Source: a phage
Sequence record: PZ347775.1
Reading direction: 5' to 3' (one strand)
Length of the DNA stretch: 64,000 nucleotides
Below are positions 1,765-61,333 of the stretch, piece after piece (the stretch's first letter is position 1; each line of letters begins with the position of its first letter). The notes beneath the pieces are model-generated. The model was given only the letters and a program-made list of their open reading frames with translations. It did no database searches and was not told the origin of the DNA. Made by a program: the position numbers and the translations under genes.

Positions 1765-1878
1765 TCACATAAATCCAAAGTAAGCGTTTAATACATCAAT
1801 CATTAAAACGATTGGGAATATACTCAAAACTACTAGTATTATAACTACATTCCATATAGCTTTAACAATATTTTTCAT
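1765..1878 (-). CDS. small membrane protein (37 aa)
   Basis: ATG at 1876-1878 (MKNIVKAIWNVVIILVVLSIF...) directly downstream of early promoter and GGAGGAACAG SD; track ORF extends through the promoter. Confidence 0.4.
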   Translation of the reverse strand: MKNIVKAIWNVVIILVVLSIFPIVLMIDVLNAYFGFM

Positions 1879-1906
1879 TTTCTGTTCCTCCGTAGTTGAT
1901 AAGATA

Positions 1907-1936
1907 ATAATACCACAGAGGAACAGTCTTGTAAAC
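1907..1936 (-). promoter_or_regulatory. T4-type early promoter (GTTTAC, 18 nt, TATTAT)
   Basis: Minus-strand -35 GTTTAC at 1931-1936 and -10 TATTAT at 1907-1912; flanked by inverted repeat ctgttcctc/gaggaacag. Confidence 0.5.
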
Positions 1937-2390: not shown

Positions 2391-2597
2391 TCAATAATCC
2401 GCTAAAAGATCGACGATTGCATCACGAAGACACTTATTCGCAATACGCTTAAGAGCAATTTCAGTTTCTGGAGCATTTTGAATAATCATTGAATTCAATT
2501 CAGCCTCAGCAAACTGAAGTTCTTTGACTAATTCAGCTTTATATTTTCCTTGCCCTTTCTTAGCTTTTGCTCGTTTTAATTCAGCTGTAGTAAACAT
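2391..2597 (-). CDS. hypothetical protein (68 aa)
   Basis: ATG at 2595-2597 preceded by conserved GGAGAATAAA cassette and early promoter; track ORF runs through the promoter. Confidence 0.5.
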   Translation of the reverse strand: MFTTAELKRAKAKKGQGKYKAELVKELQFAEAELNSMIIQNAPETEIALKRIANKCLRDAIVDLLADY

Positions 2598-2631
2598 TTT
2601 ATTCTCCAAATCCGCATCAGTTGATAGTTGT

Positions 2632-2661
2632 ATAGTACCACAGTCCTTGTGGTTTGTAAAC
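2632..2661 (-). promoter_or_regulatory. T4-type early promoter
   Basis: -35 GTTTAC (2656-2661), 18-nt spacer containing palindrome ccacaaggactgtgg, -10 TACTAT (2632-2637). Confidence 0.5.
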
Positions 2662-3235: not shown

Positions 3236-3300
3236 TAAACTTTCCTTTTACGTCGGAATCACTGATATTCATATAATAAATCATAGTTTCTCTTAAAACA

Positions 3301-3318
3301 AAAGGGCCGAAGCCCTTT
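3301..3318 (-). terminator. UUCG-tetraloop hairpin / intrinsic terminator
   Basis: aaagggccgaagcccttt; on the minus-strand RNA reads GGGC-UUCG-GCCC followed by U-rich tract. Confidence 0.5.
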
Positions 3319-3321
3319 ATT

Positions 3322-3516
3322 TTATTTGAATTGTGCAATTCTTTTCTCTAAACAATCTGCATAAGATTTCATTGAGATAAACTGCGAAAGCAGTAATTCT
3401 TGCTCGACTTCATTAATCGTTAGAAACTTTGTGCTTTCTAAAAATTTGCTTAGTGCATTAATTTTGAGCATTAATTGATCGTATTCTTCTTTTACTCGTG
3501 CTTGATAACCTAACAT
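3322..3516 (-). CDS. hypothetical protein (denB.1 position)
   Basis: 64-aa ORF with ATG and AAGGAAA SD. Confidence 0.5.
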   Translation of the reverse strand: MLGYQARVKEEYDQLMLKINALSKFLESTKFLTINEVEQELLLSQFISMKSYADCLEKRIAQFK

Positions 3517-3530
3517 AATTTTCCTTAGTT

Positions 3531-3546
3531 AAGGGCCGAAGCCCTT
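3531..3546 (-). terminator. UUCG-tetraloop hairpin at rIIB 3-prime end
   Basis: aagggccgaagccctt overlapping rIIB stop codon. Confidence 0.5.
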
Positions 3547-4483
3547 ATTTAAATTGTTCAGTAACGTCTTCAACTACTTCGTATTGGCAGGTACGCATTT
3601 TAGCATCGTTGTAATCAATCGGAATTGATACTACATCGCGAGGATGTACTTTAACTTTTACAACTCGGCTGGTTGAACTGCCAAAGTGACGAATATAAGA
3701 TTTAGAACACACATGCAGACCACGAGAACAAGTTTGTGTATCATCGTCATTCACACGAGTACGTGGCATTTTAACTACTTTACCAGGACTGTTATCAAAA
3801 GTATTTGAATGACAGTCAAAGTAATTACTGCGAACTACTTTCCAAGCATAGAAGTAACCGTCTTCTGTAATTTCAATATCGTTTGCTACCAAGAAATCAA
3901 AGAGTCGAGATACCGCTTTTTGGCTCGGGTTTTCTAACAGATTTTCCAAGAACGGAAAATAAAATTCAAAGTTTTCGCCTTTTTCCATCGAATCGAGAAT
4001 ACGATCAACTAAACCAGACCGCAATTCAATATTTTGATAGAACAAGCTTCCACCTTCAATTCGAACATCACCGGAAATATATTTTTCAACAGCGCGACGA
4101 ACGTTAATTTTTTGCGCCGCTTCTTCCAATTTATCTGCAACAAGCAGATTAAGAATTTCCTGGAAGTTTGAATGAGTATTAGGAGTTGCGTTATAAGTTA
4201 CACCGTCAACAGTAATTGAAATGAATTTTTTAGATGCATTCCAAATAATGTCAGATTTAGCAACTGGAGCAATAGCTGCATCGCTCTTAACTGTAACTGT
4301 AATGTCACCGCTAATGGTAACTTTGGAGCGCTCAGCTTCTTCAGCATTTTTCAAAACACGACGGATTGTGTCCACCGATACACCTTGCCAATCAGCCAAT
4401 TCCTGTTGGGTGTAATTACCACTTGAATACAGTTTGACAATTTCAGCTTGTTCGTTTTTGGTCAGGCATTTAATATTGTACAT
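3545..4483 (-). CDS. rIIB: rIIB membrane-associated protein
   Basis: 312-aa ORF, MYNIKCLTKNEQAEIVKLYSSGNYTQQELADWQGVSVDTIRRVL; T4 rIIB length and sequence. Confidence 0.92.
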   Translation of the reverse strand: MYNIKCLTKNEQAEIVKLYSSGNYTQQELADWQGVSVDTIRRVLKNAEEAERSKVTISGDITVTVKSDAAIAPVAKSDIIWNASKKFISITVDGVTYNATPNTHSNFQEILNLLVADKLEEAAQKINVRRAVEKYISGDVRIEGGSLFYQNIELRSGLVDRILDSMEKGENFEFYFPFLENLLENPSQKAVSRLFDFLVANDIEITEDGYFYAWKVVRSNYFDCHSNTFDNSPGKVVKMPRTRVNDDDTQTCSRGLHVCSKSYIRHFGSSTSRVVKVKVHPRDVVSIPIDYNDAKMRTCQYEVVEDVTEQFK

Positions 4484-6911: not shown

Positions 6912-6941
6912 ATTATACCACATCCTTGTGGTAAAGTAAAC
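6912..6941 (-). promoter_or_regulatory. T4-type early promoter upstream of rIIA.1/rIIA
   Basis: -35 GTTTAC (6936-6941), 18-nt spacer with ccacaaggatgtgg palindrome, -10 TATAAT (6912-6917). Confidence 0.5.
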
Positions 6942-8758
6942 TATTGGCTCATCCATTCTTTACGAAGGTCAGCATTATCTCCCATAAGCATTTCAAAAAG
7001 CTCTTTCCAGTTCTCAGGAAGTTTAACAACATCATATACTGGATTTTGAATCATCTCACGATATTCAGATTTTTCCAAAGAGCCAAGTCCTTTAATATAA
7101 CGGATGCTATGTTTAGGTAGAGCATCTTTGGCACTCTCATATTCAGCGACTGTATAAAACCATTCTTGTTTTTTACCGACCTGAGCGATGATTACAGGAG
7201 TTTTGACAAAGCGAATTCTTCCTTGTTCAAACAGTTCTGGCCAATTACTAAAAAATCCGAGCAGAGAAGGATAAATGCTTCCTAGACCATCATGGTCAGC
7301 GTCAGTCATAATGGCAATATTGTGATAATTCAAGTTTTCGGCTTTTTCACCAAGAACTAATCCAGTGATTGCGCAAATATCAAACAGTTCTTTGTTTTTA
7401 AGCATATCAGCATAAGACATACCCCAACTGTTGAGAACTTTACCACGCAATGGATAACCACCATGAAGTTCTTTATCACGAACATCAATAAGATATCCGA
7501 TAGCAGAATCACCCTCAGTCAAGAAAAGAGTAGTATCAGCATCTTTACCGCAAAGATTCGCTTTAATATGTTTATGAACCTTAGCTTTAGAAGCCTTTTT
7601 AGCTGCTTTAGTTTCTGCTGCTTTTTCTGCCGCCAATTTACGAGCCAAAGCAGCTTCAATAATTGGCATTAAAATTGCTTCATTATTTAAAATAGCACGT
7701 GAAATCTTTTTAGCATCAAGCTGAATATGACTACGAATTTCACCAAATGGAGAAGTCAAACGCTCTTTAGTTTGAGAATCAAATCGCATGTTTTTCATAT
7801 CACGAACAAACATAACGATAGTCAAACATTCTTTAACACGTGCTTTAGTTACATCAATTTTGAACTTACGTTTGATTTGTGGAATAAGGTCTTCACAAAT
7901 ATCATCCATAACACAGTCAATGTGATGGCCACCATTCTTAGTATGAATGTTATTAACGTATGTTAATTGACGAAAACCGTCGGGTGAACGACCGACCGCA
8001 ATAGAACAGTTTTCCTGTTCTTGAACGATAGCATGCTCATCATATTGGCGTGCATATTTCTTAAAATTACCCTGAACCTTTTTACCGTTAAAGGTAAATT
8101 GAATATCAGGATAAACTACTGCAAGTGTCTGGAGACGATCTAGTGTAATGTCAAGATAAACTTGAGATAGCTCATTAGTTTCAAATGACATAAAATCAGG
8201 AATGAAAGTAACGCGAGTTCCTTTCCATTTTCCAGGAATATCTTCCCATGATTTATTTTCCATGCCATTTGAACAACGAACTACAATATTATTTTGACCA
8301 TCGCCAGTTTCACCGACAAACATCACAGAAAAAATGTTAGTTAAACTAGAACCAACACCGTTCATACCGCCAGTGACGCGTTCTTTGTCATCACCGAAGT
8401 TACCACCTGCTTTTGGAATAGTCCAGGCAGCAACAGGACCAGGAATTTCTTCACCAGTAGGTGTTTTAACCATCGCTTGTGGAATACCACGACCGTTATC
8501 TTCAACTGTTACTTGATTGTTTTTAATAGTAACATTAATTTTATTCGCGAATTTAAACTTAGTACGAATACCTTCATCTACTGAGTTATCGATAATTTCA
8601 TCAATAAGCTTAACAAGACCAGGTACATACTGAACACTTTCCCATTTACCAAACAGAAAGCGCTCATGCATTTCATTAGCAGAAGAACCAATGTACATGC
8701 CGCTACGCTTTTTGATATGTTCAATATCGCTCAGAATTTTAATTTCATTCTTAATCAT
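6941..8758 (-). CDS. 39: DNA topoisomerase II large subunit, single fused polypeptide covering T4 gp39 plus gp60
   Basis: 605 aa from ATG at 8756-8758; GyrB-like ATPase N-terminus and Toprim-like region (LTEGDSA) in one uninterrupted frame. Confidence 0.9.
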   Translation of the reverse strand: MIKNEIKILSDIEHIKKRSGMYIGSSANEMHERFLFGKWESVQYVPGLVKLIDEIIDNSVDEGIRTKFKFANKINVTIKNNQVTVEDNGRGIPQAMVKTPTGEEIPGPVAAWTIPKAGGNFGDDKERVTGGMNGVGSSLTNIFSVMFVGETGDGQNNIVVRCSNGMENKSWEDIPGKWKGTRVTFIPDFMSFETNELSQVYLDITLDRLQTLAVVYPDIQFTFNGKKVQGNFKKYARQYDEHAIVQEQENCSIAVGRSPDGFRQLTYVNNIHTKNGGHHIDCVMDDICEDLIPQIKRKFKIDVTKARVKECLTIVMFVRDMKNMRFDSQTKERLTSPFGEIRSHIQLDAKKISRAILNNEAILMPIIEAALARKLAAEKAAETKAAKKASKAKVHKHIKANLCGKDADTTLFLTEGDSAIGYLIDVRDKELHGGYPLRGKVLNSWGMSYADMLKNKELFDICAITGLVLGEKAENLNYHNIAIMTDADHDGLGSIYPSLLGFFSNWPELFEQGRIRFVKTPVIIAQVGKKQEWFYTVAEYESAKDALPKHSIRYIKGLGSLEKSEYREMIQNPVYDVVKLPENWKELFEMLMGDNADLRKEWMSQ

Positions 8759-8810
8759 CACTTATCCTCGTTTGATTTCGGGAATATTATACTCCGGTAA
8801 TCATAAAGCT

Positions 8811-8829
8811 AAAGGCCCGAAGGCCTTTT
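8811..8829 (-). terminator. UUCG-tetraloop hairpin
   Basis: aaaggcccgaaggccttt just upstream of topoisomerase gene start region. Confidence 0.4.
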
Positions 8830-9088
8830 ATTTAAAACGGATAGTCGAATCCTTGAAGAATAGACCAGAACATACGGTTCCTTCTACTTTCTGCCCTGTA
8901 GGTCCAATAGCACGAAATCCAGTATGCTGGAAATCATTTTCAGAGCAACCGAACCAATTATATCCAGTGATTTCAATATTAGTAAAACCACTTGAAGACA
9001 AAACTTTGGTTGCATTATCAGCATCAGTACATCCTACTAAAGATACTGCTAATACTAATGCCGCGATAGAACGATTAACATATTTCAT
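8828..9088 (-). CDS. small lipoprotein / exported protein
   Basis: ATG MKYVNRSIAALVLAVSLVGC: signal peptide with lipobox LVGC. Confidence 0.5.
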   Translation of the reverse strand: MKYVNRSIAALVLAVSLVGCTDADNATKVLSSSGFTNIEITGYNWFGCSENDFQHTGFRAIGPTGQKVEGTVCSGLFFKDSTIRFK

Positions 9089-10293: not shown

Positions 10294-10563
10294 TTAATTG
10301 AACAGTGGAGCGATGCGTTTCAGAAGAGTAGCAGCACCTTTGGCAAATTTTACATCATGAAAAACAGTTTCTTCTTCCGTTACAACACGAACTTTAATGT
10401 TTTCACAATCCCAATTTTTACGAACAATCTTCAAAAGCTGCAGTAAATCTTTACATTCAGCAATATCGATAACACATCCACGAGAATCTTCCATTATCGC
10501 ACGATAACCATAAGCCATACCATAATCGTTGAAAGATTGTTCGATGATAATTAAGTTTTCCAT
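10294..10563 (-). CDS. hypothetical protein (89 aa)
   Basis: ATG preceded by conserved GGAGAATAAA cassette; track start lies in the SD. Confidence 0.5.
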   Translation of the reverse strand: MENLIIIEQSFNDYGMAYGYRAIMEDSRGCVIDIAECKDLLQLLKIVRKNWDCENIKVRVVTEEETVFHDVKFAKGAATLLKRIAPLFN

Positions 10564-10670
10564 TTTATTCTCCAAGTTGTTTTCTGTATCAGTAGTTGAT
10601 ATTGATATAGTACCATAATCAACTACTGATGTATATAGTTTTATGAAAAAATTTTAAACTTTATGCAAAT

Positions 10671-11090
10671 TTATGCTAAAGCTGCTTCGCACCATTTTTT
10701 AATTTGGAATTCAGGAACTACCATGAACTGGCCTGCAAAAACAATATTGTAGAGCTTGACGCCATCTTCTACCCAACGGTCCGAAATAAAACCAGCGACT
10801 TGATTCGTTGTCCACGGAGTTCCATCTGTTGCCGCCGCAATTGTGAATTTATGGTCTTTTACAACTAAAACTGAAGAACAAAGTTTCCATTTAAATGCGC
10901 TTTCTTCTGGCTCAATGAATTGGCTTGAGACATAACCAATGTTACCATCAGCGTCACGAACTTTAACCTCGTTACGACCAAAAACTGGATCACTTACAGA
11001 AAGAACTTCAACCAGCTTTCCTGCAACTTTAGAACGAGAAGCAACGGATACATATACGTAATCACCAGTAGAGAGATTTACAATATTCAT
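10671..11090 (-). CDS. hypothetical protein, paralog of adjacent 162-aa protein
   Basis: Shares RSK-AGKLVE and WVEDGVKLYN-VF motifs with 11107..11595. Confidence 0.55.
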   Translation of the reverse strand: MNIVNLSTGDYVYVSVASRSKVAGKLVEVLSVSDPVFGRNEVKVRDADGNIGYVSSQFIEPEESAFKWKLCSSVLVVKDHKFTIAAATDGTPWTTNQVAGFISDRWVEDGVKLYNIVFAGQFMVVPEFQIKKWCEAALA

Positions 11091-11595: not shown

Positions 11596-11639
11596 AGTTA
11601 TCTCTCACTTGTTAAAAAGATTTTATACTCCACAGGACC

Positions 11640-11669
11640 ATTATACTCTGGTCCCAAGAGTTTGTAAAC
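11640..11669 (-). promoter_or_regulatory. T4-type early promoter
   Basis: -35 GTTTAC (11664-11669), 18-nt spacer, -10 TATAAT (11640-11645) embedded in inverted repeat gggacc/ggtcc. Confidence 0.5.
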
Positions 11670-11671
11670 TA

Positions 11672-11764
11672 TTAATTCAAAATAGCTACCACTGCACTAC
11701 GAGGTACTACGCTAAAATCACCTGCATGAACAACGTTCAGAAGTTCAACACGATAAATTTTCAT
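11672..11764 (-). CDS. 30-aa micro-ORF
   Basis: ATG with GAGGA SD and own GTTTAC/TATTAT promoter (11792-11821); MKIYRVELLNVVHAGDFSVVPRSAVVAILN. Confidence 0.3.
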   Translation of the reverse strand: MKIYRVELLNVVHAGDFSVVPRSAVVAILN

Positions 11765-11791
11765 TTTATTATCCTCAGTAGCTATGGTGTT

Positions 11792-11821
11792 ATAATACCA
11801 TAACTAACCGAGGAAGTAAAC
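11792..11821 (-). promoter_or_regulatory. T4-type early promoter
   Basis: -35 GTTTAC (11816-11821), 18-nt spacer, -10 TATTAT (11792-11797). Confidence 0.45.
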
Positions 11822-15418: not shown

Positions 15419-15448
15419 ACTATAACATTTTTACTTCAGCTTGTAAAC
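15419..15448 (-). promoter_or_regulatory. T4-type early promoter upstream of srd-position gene
   Basis: -35 GTTTAC (15443-15448), 18-nt spacer, -10 TATAGT (15419-15424). Confidence 0.5.
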
Positions 15449-16107: not shown

Positions 16108-16727
16108 TCAACTACCTCAATATCATACACTTTAAATGTTCCAAACGAATCATGTAATTTTTCTTTTGAAATAGAAGTTATTTTATACTTTCCAATTGGA
16201 ATCATCCATTCTTGTTCACGTACAATCATCATTAAGTTATCAGTACGTTCTGAATCTAATCCATCAGTATCTTCATATGTATACTTAAACTCAGTATTAG
16301 GAGAAGAAAGTATAATATCGCTGATATGGTCAGAGTAATTAAAAGCTTTATCAGTTTTTAAGCGAAGTACTATTTCAGTGAAATATTCAGCATAGGAAAA
16401 AGAACACGCTGTATGCAAACTAGTAGTAAATGAATCTACTCTGTTCGTTGAAAACACTTCTCCAACTTGTAAATCTTTAATGAGTTCTTTTGTCGATTTT
16501 GATATACCACGATATAACTGATAAGGTGATTCAGTTAAATGCTTTTTAATGATTTTATTCAACTGCCGATGAAGAGCTTCATTCTTTTTGGCTTCCATAC
16601 ATTGCCAAAGAATTGACTGTTCAAAGTCAGTAAATTTTTCACAGACCTTTTTATACATATCATATTGAAAATCGACACTTTCAGCTTTTATAGATAACTG
16701 TTCAACATCTGCGAGATTAATAATCAT
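16104..16727 (-). CDS. modB: ModB ADP-ribosyltransferase
   Basis: 207 aa from second ATG after GGAGG SD; motifs LYRG / SFTTS / REQEWMIP. Confidence 0.88.
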   Translation of the reverse strand: MIINLADVEQLSIKAESVDFQYDMYKKVCEKFTDFEQSILWQCMEAKKNEALHRQLNKIIKKHLTESPYQLYRGISKSTKELIKDLQVGEVFSTNRVDSFTTSLHTACSFSYAEYFTEIVLRLKTDKAFNYSDHISDIILSSPNTEFKYTYEDTDGLDSERTDNLMMIVREQEWMIPIGKYKITSISKEKLHDSFGTFKVYDIEVVE

Positions 16728-16753
16728 GATAGCCTCCATATACTTCAGAAGCT

Positions 16754-16783
16754 ATCATATCATTGTTAGGAAGGAAAGTAAAC
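16754..16783 (-). promoter_or_regulatory. T4-type early promoter upstream of modB
   Basis: -35 GTTTAC (16778-16783), 18-nt spacer, -10 TATGAT (16754-16759). Confidence 0.45.
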
Positions 16784-18855: not shown

Positions 18856-18885
18856 ATTATACCATACTCATTTTGGAAAGTAAAC
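18856..18885 (-). promoter_or_regulatory. T4-type early promoter
   Basis: -35 GTTTAC (18880-18885), 18-nt spacer, -10 TATAAT (18856-18861). Confidence 0.5.
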
Positions 18886-23148: not shown

Positions 23149-23251
23149 GATAATCTCCTCAGTAGTTTATGTTTATAGTATCTCAATTTTCAACAAAAGT
23201 AAACACTAGTAGAAGCAAACAGACAAATTACAATAATTGGTGATTTCAGTT

Positions 23252-23431
23252 TCATTCTTCTCCTCCATGTTGATGAACATATTCTTTTTCAAGTCTAGAG
23301 CACAAGTTTTCATATTCAACTAATAAAAATGAATCAAGTGCGTTATTTCTATGCTGACACCGTTCTTGTAAAGAATCCATCTCTGAACGTTGTTCTTGTG
23401 TTAATAATTGATAACCTGATACTTTAGACAT
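23252..23431 (-). CDS. hypothetical protein (59 aa)
   Basis: ATG after GGAGAACAAA cassette and perfect early promoter. Confidence 0.5.
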   Translation of the reverse strand: MSKVSGYQLLTQEQRSEMDSLQERCQHRNNALDSFLLVEYENLCSRLEKEYVHQHGGEE

Positions 23432-23467
23432 TTTGTTCTCCATTTACTCGTTTGTTTTGATAGGTCT

Positions 23468-23496
23468 ATAATAACATGTTTAAAACAAAAGTAAAC
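23468..23496 (-). promoter_or_regulatory. T4-type early promoter
   Basis: -35 GTTTAC (23491-23496), 17-nt spacer, -10 TATTAT (23468-23473). Confidence 0.5.
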
Positions 23497-23750
23497 TATT
23501 TTATTTCCTCAAGTTCGTTAATCAATAAAAGTTCTCTGACGCTAAAAATAAAGAAAAATGTGTTCCCATCAACCAGAGCATGACCGCTAATAGAACACCC
23601 TCTGCGGAATTTAGAAACTTCACAATCTAGAACTGTAAAGGGTTTTAATCCTATGACTTTAGCTGTGCGTCTATTCAGTTCACAACCACTCGCGAATTTT
23701 TCCAAATCTTCTTCTGATTTAAACTGATATTCTCTATTAACTAGCATCAT
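23496..23750 (-). CDS. hypothetical protein (84 aa)
   Basis: ORF with early promoter upstream. Confidence 0.5.
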   Translation of the reverse strand: MMLVNREYQFKSEEDLEKFASGCELNRRTAKVIGLKPFTVLDCEVSKFRRGCSISGHALVDGNTFFFIFSVRELLLINELEEIK

Positions 23751-23781
23751 TTTCTTTTCTCCGCGATTAGCTGATAGAATT

Positions 23782-23811
23782 ACTATAACACAACTCTATC
23801 AGCTTGTAAAC
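23782..23811 (-). promoter_or_regulatory. T4-type early promoter
   Basis: -35 GTTTAC (23806-23811), 18 nt, -10 TATAGT (23782-23787); inverted repeat agctgatag/ctatcagct flanks -10. Confidence 0.5.
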
Positions 23812-24255: not shown

Positions 24256-24284
24256 AAAAATCTCCTCATTTAACCAACAAGACT

Positions 24285-24314
24285 ACTATACCATAGTCTT
24301 GTCGGCTTGTAAAC
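24285..24314 (-). promoter_or_regulatory. T4-type early promoter
   Basis: -35 GTTTAC (24309-24314), 18 nt, -10 TATAGT (24285-24290); inverted repeat around -10. Confidence 0.45.
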
Positions 24315-29729: not shown

Positions 29730-29966
29730 TCAAATACAAGTAGTAATTACTCCAGTAGTGCTTACACAGGTATTACCTAATTGAACACCCAGCGTTCCAT
29801 TAGTATTCATATGAAGATTATCATCAATTTTTGTTGATACTTTACCATTCATGTGAATAATAGTATTAGATTCAATCACATTCTGAGTGTCATTTTCAAT
29901 ATCAATAAATGGAACAGTTGCTAATGCAACTAAACACACTGCTAAACAACCATAAACAATTTTCAT
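29730..29966 (-). CDS. small exported protein (78 aa)
   Basis: ATG at 29964-29966 after GGAGAATAAA cassette; N-terminal signal-like hydrophobic segment; track ORF runs through promoter. Confidence 0.5.
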   Translation of the reverse strand: MKIVYGCLAVCLVALATVPFIDIENDTQNVIESNTIIHMNGKVSTKIDDNLHMNTNGTLGVQLGNTCVSTTGVITTCI

Positions 29967-30000
29967 TTTATTCTCCAAATCCGTATCAGTTGATAGTTGT

Positions 30001-30030
30001 ATAGTATCATGGAAGAACGGGAATGTAAAC
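30001..30030 (-). promoter_or_regulatory. T4-type early promoter
   Basis: -35 GTTTAC (30025-30030), 18 nt, -10 TACTAT (30001-30006). Confidence 0.5.
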
Positions 30031-32881: not shown

Positions 32882-32902
32882 TTGATATATTATACTCCAA
32901 AT

Positions 32903-32920
32903 AAGGGGCCGAAGCCCCTT
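32903..32920 (-). terminator. UUCG-tetraloop hairpin
   Basis: aaggggccgaagcccctt between regA-proximal ORF and gene 43. Confidence 0.45.
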
Positions 32921-32922
32921 GC

Positions 32923-33186
32923 TTAAATTAATACCATTTGTCGGTGAAAAATTGTCAATCCATCTGCATTAATTGACTTAACCACTGCGGTAAAGTGTTT
33001 TTGTTCTGGGTGAACTAATTTTTGAAATTCTACCTGAAATTTTAGTTGGAGATTTTCTGGTAAATCAAAAAGTGTTTCTGTTGCAGAAAGATTATATTTT
33101 TCTTTAAGAGACGCCATGTATTCTTGCGGGGTTATAGCAGTCATATTAATTACCAATCGTATATTTTGGAACGAGTTTCCATTCAT
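32923..33186 (-). CDS. hypothetical protein (up to 87 aa)
   Basis: ORF between regA and 43; start uncertain, overlaps regA end. Confidence 0.35.
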   Translation of the reverse strand: MNGNSFQNIRLVINMTAITPQEYMASLKEKYNLSATETLFDLPENLQLKFQVEFQKLVHPEQKHFTAVVKSINADGLTIFHRQMVLI

Positions 33187-35040: not shown

Positions 35041-35071
35041 AATTTCCTCATTCAAGTTTAGTGTAAATTAT

Positions 35072-35089
35072 AAAGGGCCGAAGCCCTTT
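35072..35089 (-). terminator. UUCG-tetraloop hairpin
   Basis: aaagggccgaagcccttt between genes 45 and 44. Confidence 0.45.
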
Positions 35090-35090
35090 A

Positions 35091-35777
35091 TTAAAAGTCG
35101 TGGGTAGAATCAGCTTCAAGAGCTACTACATAATTCGCATGTTCACCTTCAAATTTAGCAGCGCCTTGTTTACCTTTTGCCCAGAGAAGAAGTTTATAAT
35201 TTCCTGGTTGCATTTTCATATTTGCCATATTGATAATGAAATTAAATGTATTTTCACCATCATAATCACCAAGAGTCAAAGAATATTTAACACGGGTCAA
35301 AGCAGAATCTTCTACTTTGTTAAAACCGTTAATTACAATTTTACCTTCTTTTACTGTGATAGCAATTGTATCAATCTGCAGACCGCGAGATACACGCAAC
35401 AGCTGTTGAAGGTCTTCAGCTTTAATTTCAGTAACAACAGATGCTACCGGGAATGGAATTGGTTTATTAGGAGCAACTACTGTACTCGGATCGGCTGCTG
35501 GCCAAAAAATTGTTGAACGAGCATCAGCAATTTTAATATTACCATCTTCTGACTGGGAAATTTCTGCATCATCATTAACTAGAGACAGAATACCGAGAAA
35601 ACCGTTCAAATCGTAAATCGCTACATCAAAATCAATAGTGTCAGAAATATTTGCTTCTGCATAAGTTGTACCATTAACCGCGCGAGTCATAATAAATTGA
35701 CCGGATTTAAGCATAATACCAGAGTTAATAGTAGCGAAATTTTTAAGCAGAGCAGTAGTATCTTTAGACAGTTTCAT
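35091..35777 (-). CDS. 45: gp45 sliding clamp
   Basis: 228-aa ORF MKLSKDTTALLKNFATINSGIMLKSGQFIMTRAVNGTTY; T4 gp45. Confidence 0.95.
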   Translation of the reverse strand: MKLSKDTTALLKNFATINSGIMLKSGQFIMTRAVNGTTYAEANISDTIDFDVAIYDLNGFLGILSLVNDDAEISQSEDGNIKIADARSTIFWPAADPSTVVAPNKPIPFPVASVVTEIKAEDLQQLLRVSRGLQIDTIAITVKEGKIVINGFNKVEDSALTRVKYSLTLGDYDGENTFNFIINMANMKMQPGNYKLLLWAKGKQGAAKFEGEHANYVVALEADSTHDF

Positions 35778-39621: not shown

Positions 39622-39781
39622 ATATCAAGAACCGTCATTGAAATGCAAAATAAAATTATTGAAATAAATCCATCTGGAGTGCTAAAGAACCCAATCCAAC
39701 ACGCTCTAGTGAATAGATAAAACGCTAGAAAAAGTATCACATATCCAAGAAATATCATTATATCAAACTCCGTATAAAGCT

Positions 39782-39799
39782 AAAGGGCCGAAGCCCTTT
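39782..39799 (-). terminator. UUCG-tetraloop hairpin
   Basis: aaagggccgaagcccttt overlapping alpha-gt stop. Confidence 0.45.
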
Positions 39800-41000
39800 A
39801 TTTTGTAATAATGTCAAACTGTTCTTTAAAGCAGAAGCTTGAATCTTGATGCTGATACAAAAATTCATAAGCTTTTTCGCGTTCACGGTCATAAAGAGCT
39901 CGGTCAGATGACAGTTCTTTAATACGCTCAAATGTTGATTCCATGTCATTTTCATCAAACCAAACGATACCGCTATCATGAGAAATTAACGGAGTATTAT
40001 CAACACGGAATTTTAAATTTTCACCAGTAGATTTCCAAAATACTGGAATTGTTCCGCATGCACCAAGCTCGAGATGAGTGTATTCTAAAGAACGTTGTAG
40101 ATATTTTTTATCTAATTTACTCAGCTGATAACCAAATCCGGATTTACTCATACGTTCAAGCATTTCGCTATTTACATAACGGTCGAGAATTTGCGTTGGC
40201 AAATTAGGAGCAATTTTAATTTGGTCTACCTGATGAAGACGATAATACTCATATGGAATTCCTTTTTCTTTAATAGGAATGAACGCTGGAGAACGTTCCA
40301 GACCTTCCATAATAGTACTCAATCCCGCAGGTTTAAGATGTTTTTCATGAAAATCAAACATCTGATAAAAGCCTTTCCATGTAGTAGTACGACCAATCCA
40401 ACGGTTGATATTCATGTTAATTTCAGAAACATCTTTCCAGTAGGTTGATCGAACCTTCGCAATATCCATAGGAGGCTGAAAGTTATATACGGTCGGTGCT
40501 TCTTCAATATCATCAAACAGAGAAACTGTTTCTGGATACCATTCTTTCATCAGAACTTTATTAAAATCACCATTATCAGAATGACTAAAAATAACATCAG
40601 CTCGACGAACAGTTTCTTCTAATCCCAAATTTCGGCGCAAAGAAAGAGAAGAATGGTCATGTTGATAAACTACAACACGAACCGAAGGTTTAATGTTATC
40701 AATAATTTTTTTATAGTTATTAATAGTGTCTTCTTCGACTGAAGTAGCAGGAACTGAATTGATAACTAGAATATCACAATCATTTACCAGCTTAAGTGTT
40801 TTATCGTATTCTTTTGCCAATAAAACCGGAATTGAAAATGATTTATAATCATGCGCGCAATTACGGGTAAATGATTTATCTTTAGCATAAACCAAAGTTA
40901 CTTCATGACCATTTTTAATAAACCAATCACGCTGCTCAAGAGAAAATTTAGTTACACCACAACCTTCAAGACCTCGAGCCATAAAAATGCATACTTTCAT
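39798..41000 (-). CDS. a-gt: alpha-glucosyltransferase (HMC-DNA)
   Basis: 400-aa ORF CIFMARGLEGCGVTKFSLEQRDWFIKNGHEVTLVYAKDKSF; T4 alpha-gt. Confidence 0.92.
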   Translation of the reverse strand: MKVCIFMARGLEGCGVTKFSLEQRDWFIKNGHEVTLVYAKDKSFTRNCAHDYKSFSIPVLLAKEYDKTLKLVNDCDILVINSVPATSVEEDTINNYKKIIDNIKPSVRVVVYQHDHSSLSLRRNLGLEETVRRADVIFSHSDNGDFNKVLMKEWYPETVSLFDDIEEAPTVYNFQPPMDIAKVRSTYWKDVSEINMNINRWIGRTTTWKGFYQMFDFHEKHLKPAGLSTIMEGLERSPAFIPIKEKGIPYEYYRLHQVDQIKIAPNLPTQILDRYVNSEMLERMSKSGFGYQLSKLDKKYLQRSLEYTHLELGACGTIPVFWKSTGENLKFRVDNTPLISHDSGIVWFDENDMESTFERIKELSSDRALYDREREKAYEFLYQHQDSSFCFKEQFDIITK

Positions 41001-43383: not shown

Positions 43384-43421
43384 ACATTATCCTCAATTAC
43401 ATTAAAATTTTATTATCCAAA

Positions 43422-43437
43422 AAGGGCCGAAGCCCTT
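43422..43437 (-). terminator. UUCG-tetraloop hairpin
   Basis: aagggccgaagccctt. Confidence 0.45.
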
Positions 43438-43636
43438 AGCTAAACTGTTTGGCACCCTTCCAGCCTTCGTACATCATTGCAGCTGATATTAATATTGCTC
43501 CTGAGCAACTTGAATATTTGTGATTCCAAAACCAGTTTAGAAAAACTTCGTCATCAATACCTTGAGCTATCATATTTTCAAAGAACTGACGACGAGCTTC
43601 GGCAATTCGTTGTGATAATTTAGATTCAGGATTCAT
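43436..43636 (-). CDS. hypothetical protein (66 aa)
   Basis: ORF. Confidence 0.45.
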   Translation of the reverse strand: MNPESKLSQRIAEARRQFFENMIAQGIDDEVFLNWFWNHKYSSCSGAILISAAMMYEGWKGAKQFS

Positions 43637-43775: not shown

Positions 43776-44069
43776 TCAGCTGTAACGATAGCACTCGTTT
43801 GATTTGCGCTTAGCAACTCGTTGAGAAGTATTATAATCAAAATCATCATCAATGTAAACTGATTTTTTCAACTTTCTTACTTCACCACGTAATTGGCGAT
43901 TTAGCTCATCTTTAACTTCTGAGTCAATGCCTTTCATTCTACGCCATTTATCTGAGCGAAAAATGTTTTCAACCATATCTTTATGACTTACACCATCAGG
44001 AGCTTTACGCTTTCCGAAATAGTCATAATCACGAACTTTTAAGTCTTTACGACGATACGTTTTACCCAT
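43776..44069 (-). CDS. hypothetical basic protein (97 aa)
   Basis: ATG MGKTYRRKDLK with AAGGAAA SD. Confidence 0.45.
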   Translation of the reverse strand: MGKTYRRKDLKVRDYDYFGKRKAPDGVSHKDMVENIFRSDKWRRMKGIDSEVKDELNRQLRGEVRKLKKSVYIDDDFDYNTSQRVAKRKSNECYRYS

Positions 44070-44274: not shown

Positions 44275-44304
44275 ATAATACCACAGTTTGAACTTCTTGT
44301 AAAC
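44275..44304 (-). promoter_or_regulatory. T4-type early promoter
   Basis: -35 GTTTAC (44299-44304), 18 nt, -10 TATTAT (44275-44280). Confidence 0.5.
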
Positions 44305-48308: not shown

Positions 48309-48413
48309 TTAAGTCATTTATCGTTGGTTCATTATATACTGTTTCTTCATCAGTGTAAACCGGTTCTTCCGGCTCTGGCTCTACTGTTTCCCATCTAGCC
48401 GCCCACCAAGGTT

Positions 48414-52008: not shown

Positions 52009-52065
52009 ATTAATCTCCTCAGTAGAAAGTAAGAACATTATACCACATCCTTGTGGCAAAGTAAA

Positions 52066-53094
52066 CTAGTTCAGTGCATTTAGTGCATTGTTCAGTTTAG
52101 AACGTTGCTTCGTAAGATTTTTGACTTTTTCTTGAGCTTTTTCTAGTATCTTTTCAGCTTCTAGCACTTCATTAGTTGCTTTAACGAGTTCATCATCTAC
52201 TGCCTTGATAGACTTCTCAATCGCATCGGCATGCCATTTTTCAACAGGTTTAAGACTCGGATTTTCAACAGGAAGAAAATTCACTTTATTGAATTTCCAT
52301 GCATCCTTATTACCTGAACTATACATCCAAAATTTAGGATCGTTTGATGAGTAATTGGATAAATTTAAATTTAAGTTATCTTGTACTTCTTGCTTTTTCT
52401 CTTGTGGGACTTCGTCCTTTCTCAAAAAATCGTATTTAAATGAAACGATCATATCAAGTTCATATGTTGTTGTGTCTAATTTAAATCGCTCAAAACGAGG
52501 TAAAATCTTAGACTGAACTGCAGCAACAACGTCCATATACTTAAATGCTTCTGTCAACTGCGATTTAAGGCATTCGCAAATTGAAAGAGAATTTTTTGTA
52601 TTAGGTTTAAAGCTAATTCGTGCAGTTCTGTTATTTTCTTTTAATGGTCTTACTTCCATCTGAAGAGTATAACCATCAAATTTCAGGTTCTTTAAGTTAA
52701 TATCAGAACCTTTTAATCGACTCGCAGTTGATAAAATTTGCTTTAATTGTCTACGGAACAGAGCAATAAATCTCCATTCAATACGATAATGATTTGGATT
52801 GAAAAATCCAGATGATAAATCGACCTTACTTTGACCAACGCCTTGAACAAATAAAGGATTTTTATAATCAATAGTTTTACAGAAATCGGTGAGTTGCTCA
52901 CGAGCAGTCATTTGTGTAATATAACCCGCTTTACTAAAATTACGCACCCATTCACTGCTATTCGTATACTTAAAGTGATGAATAACACGATTAACTTTAT
53001 CAGGGTCTAAATTATTTTCACACAAAAATGTCATAACATCACGAGTATAGCTGGCGTTACGAACCATATCTTCAATTTGAGAACGAGTTTTCAT
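52066..53094 (-). CDS. paralog family member 3 (342 aa) with C-terminal coiled coil
   Basis: RIEWRFIALFRRQLKQILSTASRL and KYMDVV blocks; C-terminal coiled coil. Confidence 0.6.
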   Translation of the reverse strand: MKTRSQIEDMVRNASYTRDVMTFLCENNLDPDKVNRVIHHFKYTNSSEWVRNFSKAGYITQMTAREQLTDFCKTIDYKNPLFVQGVGQSKVDLSSGFFNPNHYRIEWRFIALFRRQLKQILSTASRLKGSDINLKNLKFDGYTLQMEVRPLKENNRTARISFKPNTKNSLSICECLKSQLTEAFKYMDVVAAVQSKILPRFERFKLDTTTYELDMIVSFKYDFLRKDEVPQEKKQEVQDNLNLNLSNYSSNDPKFWMYSSGNKDAWKFNKVNFLPVENPSLKPVEKWHADAIEKSIKAVDDELVKATNEVLEAEKILEKAQEKVKNLTKQRSKLNNALNALN

Positions 53095-54463: not shown

Positions 54464-54991
54464 TTATGCGAGTACCGTCTTTAACCGTTCTTCAAACTTC
54501 CGAAGAGTATTTTGGCGTTCAGCTCTTTGCTTTTTGTAAGTTTCAATACGCTCTGAAATGAGAGTGTATCGTTCATTTACTGATTCTTTCATAAAATCAG
54601 GAATTTCACGAGAAGCTTTAATCTCGTCAAATTTATCAATAACAGCTTGCTCTTCAGCAATTAAGTTATCATACATTAAAATATCTTTCTTGATAAACTC
54701 AATATCTTCTTGAGTTACACGAGATAACTTAGATGCTTTATCCTTTTTGTACTGTTCATTAGTATCACGAGACCAATGTAATGTACGATTTTTATTCGTA
54801 TTTTTGTAAATTTCGACAATACCAATCTCATCAATAATAACGATCCAATTCCAACGGGATTTGTAAATTTGTCCTCCATCAACAGTGATTTCACCTCCGA
54901 TTGAGATGTCGTTAAAGAACTTGCTTTGTGCTTCAGATTTAAATTTACCATCATTGTAATTTACCAAGTTGAAAATATCTTTAGCGTTCAT
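54464..54991 (-). CDS. hypothetical protein (175 aa)
   Basis: ATG after early promoter/SD module. Confidence 0.55.
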   Translation of the reverse strand: MNAKDIFNLVNYNDGKFKSEAQSKFFNDISIGGEITVDGGQIYKSRWNWIVIIDEIGIVEIYKNTNKNRTLHWSRDTNEQYKKDKASKLSRVTQEDIEFIKKDILMYDNLIAEEQAVIDKFDEIKASREIPDFMKESVNERYTLISERIETYKKQRAERQNTLRKFEERLKTVLA

Positions 54992-55019
54992 TTTCTGTTC
55001 CTCCGTAGTTGATAGTTGT

Positions 55020-55049
55020 ATAGTACCACAGAGGAACAGTCTTGTAAAC
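55020..55049 (-). promoter_or_regulatory. T4-type early promoter
   Basis: -35 GTTTAC (55044-55049), 18 nt, -10 TACTAT (55020-55025); same module as at 1907-1936. Confidence 0.5.
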
Positions 55050-56156: not shown

Positions 56157-57121
56157 TTTAATAATACCGTTTCAGCAATTTCTTCCCAACCGTTTTTGTC
56201 GGTCATAATAAAGTCAGCAAGATAAAGAGCAGTACGCAGTGAAACATTGCGTAAACGATTAACATTAACTTTCATCCATGATAATGCTTTATAAGTTTCT
56301 TCATCAGAAAGACCGCGCTTTTGCATCATGTCAGTTGAAAGAATAACATCTTCAACCCTGACCATAATTTCTTCATTAGTGTGAACACCCAAATCCAAAT
56401 AAACTGAGCGGGACACCAATGCTTGTAAGTGTGGAGCAAGTTTAGTACCACGGTCTAATTCGCGGTCAATGTCAACGTTTGTGATAAAAACAATCGTTCC
56501 TTTAAATTCAAACTCACGGTCAATGCCTTTTTCTTCTAAGTAAGAAGATGCAGTGCTCCAGCAGACTTTACGGGTCTCTCCAGTGTCCAGAGCAGCTTTT
56601 AGAAGATTAAGAATGTCCATATCAGAGAAAACATCCACATCATCAATCAAAAGGACAGAATTCTCTTCACGATTATTCCAAAGCTGTTCATAAAGACCAA
56701 TACCAGAGATTTTACCATTAATGCTTTTATATTCAATGTATCCATTATCATTTGCTTTATTTAAAGCTTTATCTAAAGAATACGTTTTACCAATACCTGC
56801 TGCGCCAGAGATAATTAATGAACGAATATTTCCATTAATAATACCATTCGTCATCATTCCCATAACATTAAATCTTTTATTAATGCGGGTTTTCATATCT
56901 TCATATGATTCTTTAACTTCTTCAACTTTTACACCATCATATGAAATATCTGATTTGTAAACCCAAACACCGCGACGTTTACCGTCAATTTCAACAAAAA
57001 CTTTACCATCTCCTTGTGCATCTACCGGAGCATTATCTGGGAACCATTCGCCTAAGAGCTCAAAAGTTCCAGAGATTTCTTTACCGAAGTAGATACCCTT
57101 ATTGATAGTTACAGTTTTCAT
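56153..57121 (-). CDS. AAA+/P-loop ATPase (322 aa)
   Basis: Walker A GAAGIGKT, Walker B LLIDDVD, sensor-1-like FITN; ATG after GGAGAATAAA cassette. Confidence 0.7.
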   Translation of the reverse strand: MKTVTINKGIYFGKEISGTFELLGEWFPDNAPVDAQGDGKVFVEIDGKRRGVWVYKSDISYDGVKVEEVKESYEDMKTRINKRFNVMGMMTNGIINGNIRSLIISGAAGIGKTYSLDKALNKANDNGYIEYKSINGKISGIGLYEQLWNNREENSVLLIDDVDVFSDMDILNLLKAALDTGETRKVCWSTASSYLEEKGIDREFEFKGTIVFITNVDIDRELDRGTKLAPHLQALVSRSVYLDLGVHTNEEIMVRVEDVILSTDMMQKRGLSDEETYKALSWMKVNVNRLRNVSLRTALYLADFIMTDKNGWEEIAETVLLK

Positions 57122-57182
57122 TTTATTCTCCAAATCCGTATCAGTTGATAGTTGTATAGTACCATACCCCCTTTGTGTTGAT

Positions 57183-57668
57183 TTATTCCATTTCTACTAT
57201 ATGCATGTTCTTTTTGCTATCAAAATATATGTTTTTAACTATTAACTCAGAATTAATTGGCAGTAAAAACTCTCTTTCATAATCTACCATACAAAGATTA
57301 TCATAAAGCTTGTTAAGCTTATCATCGTCAGTTTGGCCAGATTCTTCAATTGCGATTAAATTTTCTAAAATGTCAATCATAGCAGTCGAATAGTCAAAAA
57401 CGTTTGCATTTTTTAACACTACTAAAACATTAGTCATATAGCGTTCTGCCGCAAACGTTTCAGCTATATGAGACTCACTGCTAAAGGAAGTTATTCTTTT
57501 AAATTTGATTCTCCTATTAACTTCAAACTTATAAGATAACACTTCCTCTATTGTAAGTCCTCTAAAAAGTGTGTCTTTAATCTCAAGTTTGTCTTTAATG
57601 TAATCATTAACACGCTTATGATTAAAATCATTAATTTTGTTGCCAAGGCATTGCATTAAAATATGCAT
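57183..57668 (-). CDS. ModA/ModB-like R-S-E ADP-ribosyltransferase candidate (161 aa)
   Basis: LFRG / SFSSES / YEREFLLP in ModA-like order and spacing; GAGGAG SD; own early promoter. Confidence 0.6.
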   Translation of the reverse strand: MHILMQCLGNKINDFNHKRVNDYIKDKLEIKDTLFRGLTIEEVLSYKFEVNRRIKFKRITSFSSESHIAETFAAERYMTNVLVVLKNANVFDYSTAMIDILENLIAIEESGQTDDDKLNKLYDNLCMVDYEREFLLPINSELIVKNIYFDSKKNMHIVEME

Positions 57669-57714
57669 TGTATTCTCCTCAATTTTTAAAGAGCAATTAA
57701 TTAACTACACATAT

Positions 57715-57744
57715 ATTATAATATGCTTTGCGATAGAAGTAAAC
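57715..57744 (-). promoter_or_regulatory. T4-type early promoter
   Basis: -35 GTTTAC (57739-57744), 18 nt, -10 TATAAT (57715-57720). Confidence 0.5.
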
Positions 57745-60469: not shown

Positions 60470-60497
60470 TCTCTTCTCCTTGGCAGTTGACAAGATT

Positions 60498-60527
60498 ACT
60501 ATACCATAACCTTGCCAACTTGTAAAC
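60498..60527 (-). promoter_or_regulatory. T4-type early promoter
   Basis: -35 GTTTAC (60522-60527), 18 nt, -10 TATAGT (60498-60503). Confidence 0.5.
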
Positions 60528-61277: not shown

Positions 61278-61307
61278 CGATGGTTGTATAGTATCACAGC
61301 TCAAATG
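61278..61307 (-). promoter_or_regulatory. T4-type early promoter
   Basis: -35 GTTTAC (61302-61307), 18 nt, -10 TACTAT (61278-61283). Confidence 0.5.
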
Positions 61308-61333
61308 GAAAGTAAACCGGTAAAATGAAAAAA

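Follow-up and report, generated by a model that had tools for sequence, protein, structure and literature searches.

The 64,000-nucleotide stretch of phage DNA analyzed here (sequence record PZ347775.1; hereafter, the window) contains early-promoter cassettes with embedded inverted repeats, among them the promoter at positions 11640-11669, upstream of a homologue of the T4 gene motB. Strong inverted repeats are present at about a quarter to a third of such cassettes, as shown statistically, and the helices that they form are constrained as sense-strand RNA. The cassettes are recognized from their composition as a further instance of the known PeSL type described in phages RB49 and phi1, which combines an early promoter, a stem-loop, a Shine-Dalgarno (SD) sequence, and an ATG, and in which recombination between PeSLs shuffles ORFans (PMC2839356). 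The RNA helix probably marks transcripts that read through from upstream promoters. In one class of cassettes, here called class B, it would mask the SD sequence, whereas in class A it would not.

Over the 4-kb stretch around the site at 11640-11669, identity is 99.2% with the Tequatrovirus Citrobacter phage CrRp10 and 95-99% with over 300 T4-like phages; by this similarity the window is DNA of a T4-like phage, a Tequatrovirus. The order of genes is T4-like (ndd/rIIB, 39, motB, dexA, dda, modA/B, dmd, 43, 55, nrdC to mobD), and nearly all of them are on the minus strand. Promoters are referred to below by their highest coordinate.

The pattern GTTTAC-N17/18-TANNNT matches the window 23 times, with 22 minus-strand sites and one plus-strand site. 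The expectation for both strands from shuffled sequences is 1.68 ± 1.2 with a maximum of five, and none of 100 shuffles reaches 23. An earlier reading of the window made from the sequence only had counted at least 15 minus-strand promoters of the form GTTTAC-17/18-TAtAaT, which is borne out by the 22 minus-strand matches. The site at 11640-11669 on the minus strand, GTTTACAAACTCTTGGGACCAGAGTATAAT, is the top sigma-70 match between 9.5 and 25 kb, agreeing at 11 of 12 positions. A TGn extended -10 element is present in 15 of the 22 minus-strand promoters, and the 25 nucleotides upstream of the promoters are A/T-rich and UP-like (for example, aaaaagtt immediately 5' of GTTTAC). Start sites were assumed to lie 7 nucleotides past the -10 element throughout (predicted +1), which places the start codon 14-55 nucleotides downstream across the 22 promoters, each positioned ahead of an SD sequence and a start codon.

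GTTTAC at positions -36 to -31 is the -35 consensus of T4 early promoters (PMC1524935), which belong to a UP/-35/TGn/-10 class with further conserved positions beyond the hexamers (PMC2988021). Matching promoter sequences occur in T4 (AF158101) at motB, motB.2, modB, dmd, sp, mrh.2, srd, nrdC.4, nrdC.8, ndd.4, mobD.2, and mobD.5. The hairpin sequences are shared with T4 as well, and T4 copies of the cassettes are located at its coordinates 7215, 8218, 13186, 20612, 53943, 57990, and 166807. Because they are orthologous to the T4 promoter sequences upstream of motB, dmd, modB, nrdC.8, ndd.4, mobD.2, and other genes, the sites are identified as sigma-70-dependent immediate-early promoters of a T4-like phage, an already known type. 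The open reading frames (ORFs) behind them encode homologues of MotB, Dmd, ModB, Srd, Sp, Mrh.2, NrdC.4, NrdC.8, Ndd.4, MobD.2, MobD.5, 55.4, and 55.6. A generic sigma-70 scan (TTGACA/TATAAT) was discarded, as it gave no enrichment (72 sites found, 67 expected); only the T4-specific pattern is therefore informative. Two promoter matches on the minus strand lie inside coding sequence, at 43830-43859 and 48331-48360, within the homologues of 55.5 and 49.1 and upstream of 55.4 and pin, respectively. Both sequences also occur in T4, and neither has a significant stem.

Inverted repeats and their pairing as RNA

The helices were assessed using RNAfold and duplex tests. The four inverted repeats listed in the sequence-only reading (at 11640, 23782, 1882/1917, and 54995/55030) were all found at those positions, and five further repeats are located at 60520-60485, 24307-24272, 11814-11772, 16759-16725, and 10630-10588. 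The fold z-scores of the segments from the -35 element to the AUG, relative to dinucleotide shuffles, range from -3.0 to -6.5 in nine cassettes. In a duplex control that keeps the promoter consensus, the spacer of each promoter was paired with its own downstream region or with that of another promoter. The mean duplex energy for the 22 promoters of the window is -11.6 kcal/mol with the own region and -7.9 kcal/mol with the others (permutation p < 5e-5).

The same permutation is equally significant (p < 5e-5) in a set of 50 non-redundant cassettes from the window, T4, and 30 IMG/VR loci, reduced to more than 20% mutual difference. The pattern used to search for the IMG/VR loci did not include the arms, apart from the first two bases of the 5' arm. 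The 1% quantile of non-cognate pairings is exceeded by 11 of the 50 cassettes (0.5 expected) and the 5% quantile by 15. With a single register imposed on 83 unselected cassettes (columns 8-20 against 31-43), 48.0% of the cells paired, against 41.7 ± 1.1% after shuffling, and none of 500 shuffles reached the observed value. The covariation score of the 83 cassettes is 0.251 versus 0.179, and each of the six slid controls gives a lower value. An ungapped helix search was rejected, as it produced spurious long-range A/T-rich pairings at promoters without real stems. Orthologue-based covariation via ModB was also abandoned: only six related loci were available, all at least 96% identical, and the phage collection is bimodal (at least 94% or below 40%). 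Paralogous and heterologous cassettes were used because of this lack of intermediate divergence among orthologues.

To keep the choice of helices strand-symmetric, G.T and A.C were penalized equally. Under this selection, 13 of the 50 cassettes exceed the 95% level of the chimeric null. The selected helices contain 132 Watson-Crick, 15 G.U, and only one A.C pair (p = 0.0005), whereas chance helices contain 201 G.U and 274 A.C pairs. It is this preponderance of G.U over A.C that identifies the sense-strand RNA as the constrained molecule. Every difference between T4 and the window in the stems of ndd.4, dmd, mobD.2, and motB is wobble-compatible. An earlier comparison of sense and antisense stability, in which the sense strand was favored in 15 of 15 cases, was dropped as biased, since the hairpins had been picked by their sense-strand energy. 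The arm sequences vary from cassette to cassette while their complementarity is kept, and this variation disfavors a common protein-binding palindrome. Processing by RNase III was set aside, as the stems are just 13-17 bp long.

Hairpin geometry and predicted access to the ribosome-binding site

The hairpins differ in their position relative to the promoter and the SD sequence. Class A hairpins have a stem of 13-15 bp with arms at approximately -29 to -17 and -6 to +7, the extended -10 element in a loop of 6-10 nucleotides, and the SD sequence outside. They are found at motB (weaker, 7 + 5 bp), dmd, mobD.2, and the promoter at 23811; the hairpin at 10635 is similar but has a 17-nucleotide loop. 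The motB hairpin has a z-score of -3.19 and a cognate duplex energy of -17.2 kcal/mol (rank 1 of 22), and its SD sequence at 11606-11604 is outside the stem. The mobD.2 cassette is 85% identical to that of dmd (repeat family D4). In class B, the 3' arm includes the SD sequence or the AUG. The members of this class are ndd.4, nrdC.8, modB, and a remnant of motB.2 type. Their 5' arms are positioned at -26 to -13 (in modB, at the -10 element itself), and the predicted +1 is downstream of these arms. The ndd.4 and nrdC.8 cassettes share 90% identity across 67 nucleotides (family D1), and their arms pair as CUGUUCCUCUGUGG/CUACGGAGGAACAG. In the motB.2-type stem at 11821, the -10 element is flanked by the inner part, and the SD sequence GAGGA is paired within the outer part, whereas in modB the -10 hexamer and discriminator pair with GGAGGCUAUCAUG. 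In class C, the spacer itself contains a stem, which has 7 bp at 52066 and 6941 (CCACA-AGGA-TGTGG) and, as a variant, 6 bp at 2661.

The cassettes are short dispersed units of a promoter, a leader of approximately 20-30 nucleotides, an SD sequence, and an AUG, and in about a quarter to a third of them the spacer or the -10 element is complementary to sequence past the -10 element. As had been suggested from the sequence, promoter-proximal transcripts are predicted to start inside the repeat, with the +1 in the loop or the 3' arm. Given this geometry, the complete stem would form only in RNA from an upstream promoter, and it would therefore mark read-through RNA.

The predicted consequences for translation differ between the classes. 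The unpaired probability from the SD sequence to the AUG in read-through and promoter-proximal RNA, respectively, is 0.27 and 0.80 at 55049, 0.28 and 0.74 at 1936, 0.34 and 0.61 at 11821, and 0.05 and 0.54 at 16783, all of class B. The corresponding class A values are 0.30 and 0.28 at 11669, 0.81 and 0.88 at 23811, 0.46 and 0.46 at 24314, and 0.48 and 0.46 at 60527. The class A stem thus does not appear to gate translation, since the SD sequence is equally accessible in long and short RNA. The sequence-only reading had supposed that folding of read-through RNA may sequester the SD sequence, and had proposed folding the two kinds of transcript as a check. The fall in accessibility (for example, from 0.80 to 0.27) supports this for the four class B promoters, but it is missing in class A, where the SD sequences at 11669, 23811, 24314, and 60527 are outside the stem.

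Translation of class B read-through RNA would be poor, and the RNA would be protected from RegB/S1, which requires a single-stranded GGAG and an A-rich tail. RNA from the cassette's own early promoter would be open, translatable, and sensitive to RegB, an early-promoter version of the arrangement known from the T4 genes e, soc, 49, and I-TevI. It is predicted that modB most clearly, and also ndd.4, nrdC.8, and the motB.2-type remnant, are translated mainly from transcripts of their own early promoters. The class A stem is most likely an intercistronic element of polycistronic RNA, which would stand in for a separate stem-loop at junctions too tight to hold one, where the -35 element directly adjoins the stop codon of the upstream gene. 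It may attenuate or pause read-through transcription, shield the upstream message at its 3' end, or insulate the downstream ribosome site.

The RegB/S1 target is an 11-nucleotide site composed of GGA(G/U) and an A-rich, C-free tail, with the optimum GGAGAAUAAAA (PMC1702504). The window contains four exact copies of GGAGAAUAAAA, identical to the published optimum letter for letter, a point missed in the sequence-only reading. Under a looser rule, there are 15 sites on the minus strand and six on the plus strand. In short transcripts, the exact copies at 2607 and 29976 have a predicted accessibility of 0.58-0.91. Cleavage by RegB/S1 at GGAGAAUAAAA would restrict expression of the genes that carry it to the first minutes of infection. 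In T4, structured GGAG sites resist RegB, the GGAU site of motB.2 is cut, and nrdC.8 is moderately cut; GGAUAAUAAAA, of the motB.2 type, is one of just two GGAU sites that are cut (PMC1702504).

Several observations weigh against this reading of the cassettes. In a leader-swap (chimera) test of 49 cassettes, the occlusion of the SD sequence is 0.50 with the cognate leader and 0.50 with foreign leaders, and values under the 5% level are seen in only two of the 49, against 2.5 expected. On average, a cognate leader therefore masks the SD sequence no more than a foreign T4-type leader does, indicating that SD masking is not the general purpose of the repeats, and part of the class B effect may be due to spacers that are generically pyrimidine-rich and anti-SD-like. 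For modB, equal occlusion was obtained from only 2% of the foreign leaders. The SD sequence is included in 6 of 15 strong hairpins, about the proportion expected if the 3' arm were placed at random. Furthermore, the stem-loops of PeSLs in the PST/T4 pair are placed just upstream of the promoter (PMC4122927), unlike those of the window.

It is doubtful whether the embedded hairpins constitute a general transcript-origin code in T4-type phages, through which translation of read-through (delayed-early or middle) RNA and its cutting by RegB would be controlled gene by gene. The code would arise because the spacer or -10 element of each promoter supplies the 5' strand of the helix, which would make read-through RNA differ in structure from RNA initiated at that promoter. 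Under such a code, class B genes would be silent and RegB-resistant unless self-transcribed, whereas class A genes would be insulated and translatable from either origin. It would provide a sequence-level account of immediate-early versus delayed-early protein patterns, as for modB, ndd.4, and nrdC.8.

Alternative explanations for the stems

The stems could act as terminators or attenuators for polymerase arriving from upstream, preventing the build-up of transcription along tandem strong promoters, as proposed for PeSLs. In a reporter assay, the stem-loop of one RB49 PeSL behaved as a strong terminator, lowering lacZ expression to roughly the same extent as rrnB T1 (PMC2839356). The distribution of the hairpins in the window also agrees with such a function, as they occur where a separate terminator has no room: strong hairpins are present at eight of the 11 promoters with a -35 element at most 11 nucleotides from the upstream stop codon and at none of the 11 others (Fisher p = 0.001). 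Moreover, none of the three promoters with a canonical terminator just upstream (61317, 57744, and 18885) has an embedded stem. However, the promoter stems lack the G+C-rich stem and following U run of an intrinsic terminator. There is no U run after the strong stems, where the next eight nucleotides are GCCAAGGA, AAAUGAGG, AAUCGCGG, GUGGAGUA, UAAUAAAA, AAAAUGAA, and ACAGAAAA, and the class A stems were not flagged in a terminator scan. The stems are rich in A/U, whereas those of RB49 are polyG/polyC, and the real terminators of the window look different (GGGCC-GAAG-GCCC and a T run, minus strand). Termination or attenuation is considered an unlikely main role for the stems. A literature search found no Term-seq or dRNA-seq study of T4.

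The genuine terminators form a separate family of near-identical sequences, which read AAAGGGCC-GAAG-GCCCTTT on the plus strand; in the minus-strand reading, a U run comes after GGGC-UUCG-GCCC (families D5/D7).

Alternatively, the stems could serve RNA stability or processing, protecting either the upstream message at its 3' end or the downstream one at its 5' end once read-through RNA has been cleaved between the genes, by RegB at the SD sequence or by RNase E in the A/U-rich region upstream. This would agree with the specificity of the helices for sense RNA, with the position of the stems, which follow the upstream stop codon and precede a RegB-type SD sequence by 5-15 nucleotides, and with their association with junctions where an upstream ORF abuts. 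The proposal is wholly inferential and is considered improbable; in class B, enclosure of the RegB site within the stem would prevent the cleavage that it postulates.

The possibility that the repeats act as DNA, by cruciform formation or promoter melting, as recombination hot spots, or as an operator of a dimeric repressor over the -10 element, is smaller still. The repeats flank the -10 element, the cassettes are dispersed repeats accompanied by ORFans and an apparent deletion, and PeSL-mediated recombination has been demonstrated (PMC2839356). However, the 15 G.U pairs would be A.C mismatches on the complementary strand, against one A.C pair in the sense strand, and the loops of class B reach 15-17 nucleotides. 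The arms differ among promoters and provide no common protein site, and recombination requires direct rather than inverted repeats.

That the repeats are functionless products of chance or of the promoter and start-region consensus is hardly credible: although the T4 early consensus reaches past the hexamers (PMC2988021), some pairings are weak and A/T-rich (23496 and 57744), and class C stems use the consensus TGTGG, the consensus-preserving permutation of cognate and non-cognate regions gave p < 5e-5, and the arms remain complementary while varying among cassettes.

The promoters, the RegB-type SD sequence, and the promoter/stem-loop cassette were known already, and the finding mainly confirms the annotation of a T4-like early region. 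The constraint on sense-strand RNA, the two main geometries, whose predicted effects on the SD sequence are opposite, the lack of terminator tails, and the link to junctions between stop codons and -35 elements are added here. If the class B prediction is true, early promoters join late ones as promoters located inside a hairpin, and early proteins that are toxic or dose-sensitive (the ADP-ribosyltransferase ModB, for instance) would be confined to a brief burst. As T4 carries the same sequences, the prediction is directly testable in the model phage.

Dispersed cassettes, neighboring genes, and related systems

The initiation motif GGAGAATAAAATG occurs exactly at 2595-2607, 10561-10573, 29964-29976, and 57119-57131, and with one mismatch at 23429-23441 (GGAGAACAAAATG), 11762-11774, and 57666-57678. 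All copies are on the minus strand, and 0.28 are expected. The sequence-only reading had noted a recurrent SD-start cassette at 2597, 10563, 23431, 29966, and 57121, which are the coordinates of the A of each ATG; four of these copies are exact, and that at 23431 has the one mismatch. The motif is the 3' end of a 62-nucleotide dispersed repeat extending from the -10 element to the ATG, which had escaped that reading. Its copies at 2595-2656, 29964-30025, and 57119-57180 are 79-87% identical (family D2). The half cassette at 57119-57180 corresponds to a type known from degraded PeSLs. The window contains dispersed direct repeats of 39-67 nucleotides, in families D1-D4, D6, and D8.

The segment 11672-11821 contains the T4 motB.2 promoter and the start GGAUAAUAAAAUG joined to an ORF of 30 residues that ends two nucleotides before the motB promoter. 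The T4 genes motB.2 and motB.1 are absent here, and the segment resembles a deletion between promoter cassettes. The positions of the cassettes and terminators are listed in Table 1.

Table 1. Promoter cassettes, hairpins, and terminators of the window (z, fold z-score; D, repeat family).
Feature	Position	Strand	Basis or remark
ndd.4 early promoter, class B 15-bp hairpin 1926-1912/1896-1882; SD GGAGG 1891-1887 in 3' arm; ATG 1878-1876	1876-1936	-	z -6.43
Early promoter 2661-2632, spacer hairpin CCACA-AGGAC-TGTGG, 62-nt cassette, GGAGAATAAAATG 2607-2595	2595-2661	-	D2
Early promoter with class C spacer hairpin like that of nrdC.4	6912-6941	-	T4 counterpart 2458, upstream of rIIA.1
Cassette with degenerate -35, TATACA-N17-TACTAT 10635-10607, 13-bp hairpin 10630-10618/10600-10588, GGAGAATAAAATG 10573-10561	10561-10635	-	z -5.68
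motB class A hairpin, inner 7 bp 11655-11649/11640-11634 (GGGACCA/UGGUCCU), outer 5 bp 11661-11657/11631-11627	11627-11661	-	-10 in loop
motB early promoter, GTTTAC-N18-TATAAT	11640-11669	-	T4 counterpart at 7215
motB.2-type early promoter, class B 17-bp hairpin 11814-11797/11788-11772; start GGATAATAAAATG of 30-residue remnant ORF	11762-11821	-	z -6.46; T4 copy 8218 at motB.2
srd early promoter, no significant hairpin	15419-15448	-	pattern match, duplex test, T4 orthology
modB early promoter, class B 13-bp hairpin; 5' arm 16759-16747 = -10 hexamer and discriminator; 3' arm 16737-16725 = SD GGAGG and AUG	16725-16783	-	z -2.98
mrh.2 early promoter, no embedded hairpin; canonical terminator 18921-18900 just upstream	18856-18885	-	pattern, T4 orthology
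sp (spackle) early promoter, no significant hairpin	23175-23204	-	pattern match, duplex test, T4 orthology
Early promoter 23496-23468 (N17) with weak pairing UUUUGUUUU/AAAACAAA; GGAGAACAAAATG at 23441-23429	23429-23496	-	pattern match, duplex, accessibility
Early promoter 23811-23782, class A 14-bp hairpin 23804-23791/23782-23769	23769-23811	-	z -4.32; upstream of 84-residue ORFan, no Pfam
dmd early promoter, class A 15-bp hairpin 24307-24293/24286-24272	24272-24314	-	z -5.47; Dmd 100% identical
Early promoter 30030-30001, copy of 62-nt cassette, GGAGAATAAAATG 29976-29964	29964-30030	-	D2, 79%
Gene 55.6 early promoter, weak pairing only	44275-44304	-	pattern match, duplex test, T4 orthology
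nrdC.4 early promoter, class C 7-bp spacer hairpin GCCACAA-GGAU-GUGGU	52037-52066	-	97%-identical copy 6912-6943 (D8)
nrdC.8 early promoter, class B 15-bp hairpin 55039-55025/55009-54995; SD GGAGG 55004-55000 in 3' arm	54989-55049	-	z -6.32
Half cassette: -10, leader, and GGAGAATAAAATG kept, no GTTTAC -35	57119-57180	-	87% to 2595-2656 (D2)
Early promoter after canonical terminator, followed by GGAGAATACAATG 57678-57666 and 161-residue ORF	57715-57744	-	pattern match
mobD.2 early promoter, class A 15-bp hairpin 60520-60506/60499-60485	60485-60527	-	z -4.25
mobD.5 early promoter, no embedded hairpin; terminator GUCUCC-UUCG-GGAGAC and U run just upstream	61288-61317	-	pattern, T4 orthology
Terminator hairpin family	3294-3323, 3531-3558, 8804-8833, 32896-32925, 35065-35094, 39775-39804, 43414-43443	reads as terminator on -	D5/D7

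The ORF downstream of 11640-11669 (162 residues, 11595-11107, minus strand) is 96% identical to T4 MotB. A second MotB-like ORF of 139 residues (10671-11090, minus strand), annotated in CrRp10 as a MotB-like regulator, adjoins motB downstream, whereas T4 has a single motB here. Six ORFs downstream of the promoters have no Pfam family, and four of them also lack a T4 homologue. Five small ORFs without Pfam matches (59-89 residues, minus strand; 2391-2597, 10294-10563, 23252-23431, 23496-23750, and 29730-29966) are positioned right behind early-promoter cassettes. Four of the five have no T4 homologue in the matching region, consistent with the reported association of cassettes with ORFans. The 161-residue ORF at 57183-57668 (minus strand), which follows a canonical terminator and an early promoter, shares 30% identity with T4 ModB (tblastn) and has no Pfam match; it may encode a divergent additional ADP-ribosyltransferase. 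No Rfam family reaches its gathering score across window positions 1-64000, indicating that nrdD carries no recognizable group I intron within the region, unlike T4 nrdD, which contains one with I-TevII.

The promoters of the window share with T4 early promoters GTTTAC at -36 to -31, TAnnnT, TGn in 15 of 22, the A/T-rich upstream region, and the orthologous early genes, whose start codons are 20-40 nucleotides downstream. There is no difference of substance, apart from a degenerate -35 element in a few copies (10635 and 57180). The likeness to Rho-independent terminators is limited to a stable intergenic stem-loop: the promoter stems are A/U-rich and lack a U-tract, and the next gene's promoter starts inside the structure. 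The window copies of GGAGAAUAAAA are identical to the optimum of the RegB/S1 target, and GGAUAAUAAAA matches the GGAU type that is cut. The regB gene is outside the window, and cleavage by RegB in this phage is a prediction.

PeSLs have been extended to the PST/T4 pair, with the pattern TTTACW-N17-TAYWAT and including the ndd.4/ndd.5 locus (PMC4122927). The inverted-repeat promoters noticed in the sequence-only reading are real, but their published PeSL status (PMC2839356, PMC4122927) had been missed there. As in PeSLs, the cassettes are composites of promoter, stem-loop, SD sequence, and ATG, with the stem between the -35 and -10 elements or over the -10 element and with G-T pairs, and they are dispersed near-repeats of approximately 40-70 nucleotides that flank ORFans and indels. 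In contrast to the polyG/polyC stems of RB49, the stems of the window are A/U-richer, without polyG/polyC or a U run, and their arms are at approximately -29 to -17 and -6 to +7 or on the SD sequence, whereas the PST/T4 stems are just upstream of the promoter. The published roles of PeSLs, as terminator and recombination site, appear to fit the sequence features of the window poorly.

The T4 genes e, soc, 49, and I-TevI have a late promoter within the 5' strand of an inhibitory helix, which masks the ribosome site in long transcripts (PMC3014915). The parallel with T4 genes had been drawn in the sequence-only reading, and class B resembles this masking: the SD sequence or the AUG is in the helix, and transcripts from the internal promoter are predicted to lack the 5' strand. 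However, the internal promoter in the window is early (GTTTAC/TAnnnT) rather than late (TATAAATA, gp55), and the predicted outcome is expression in an immediate-early burst, in contrast to late expression in T4. Class A does not fit the T4 arrangement.

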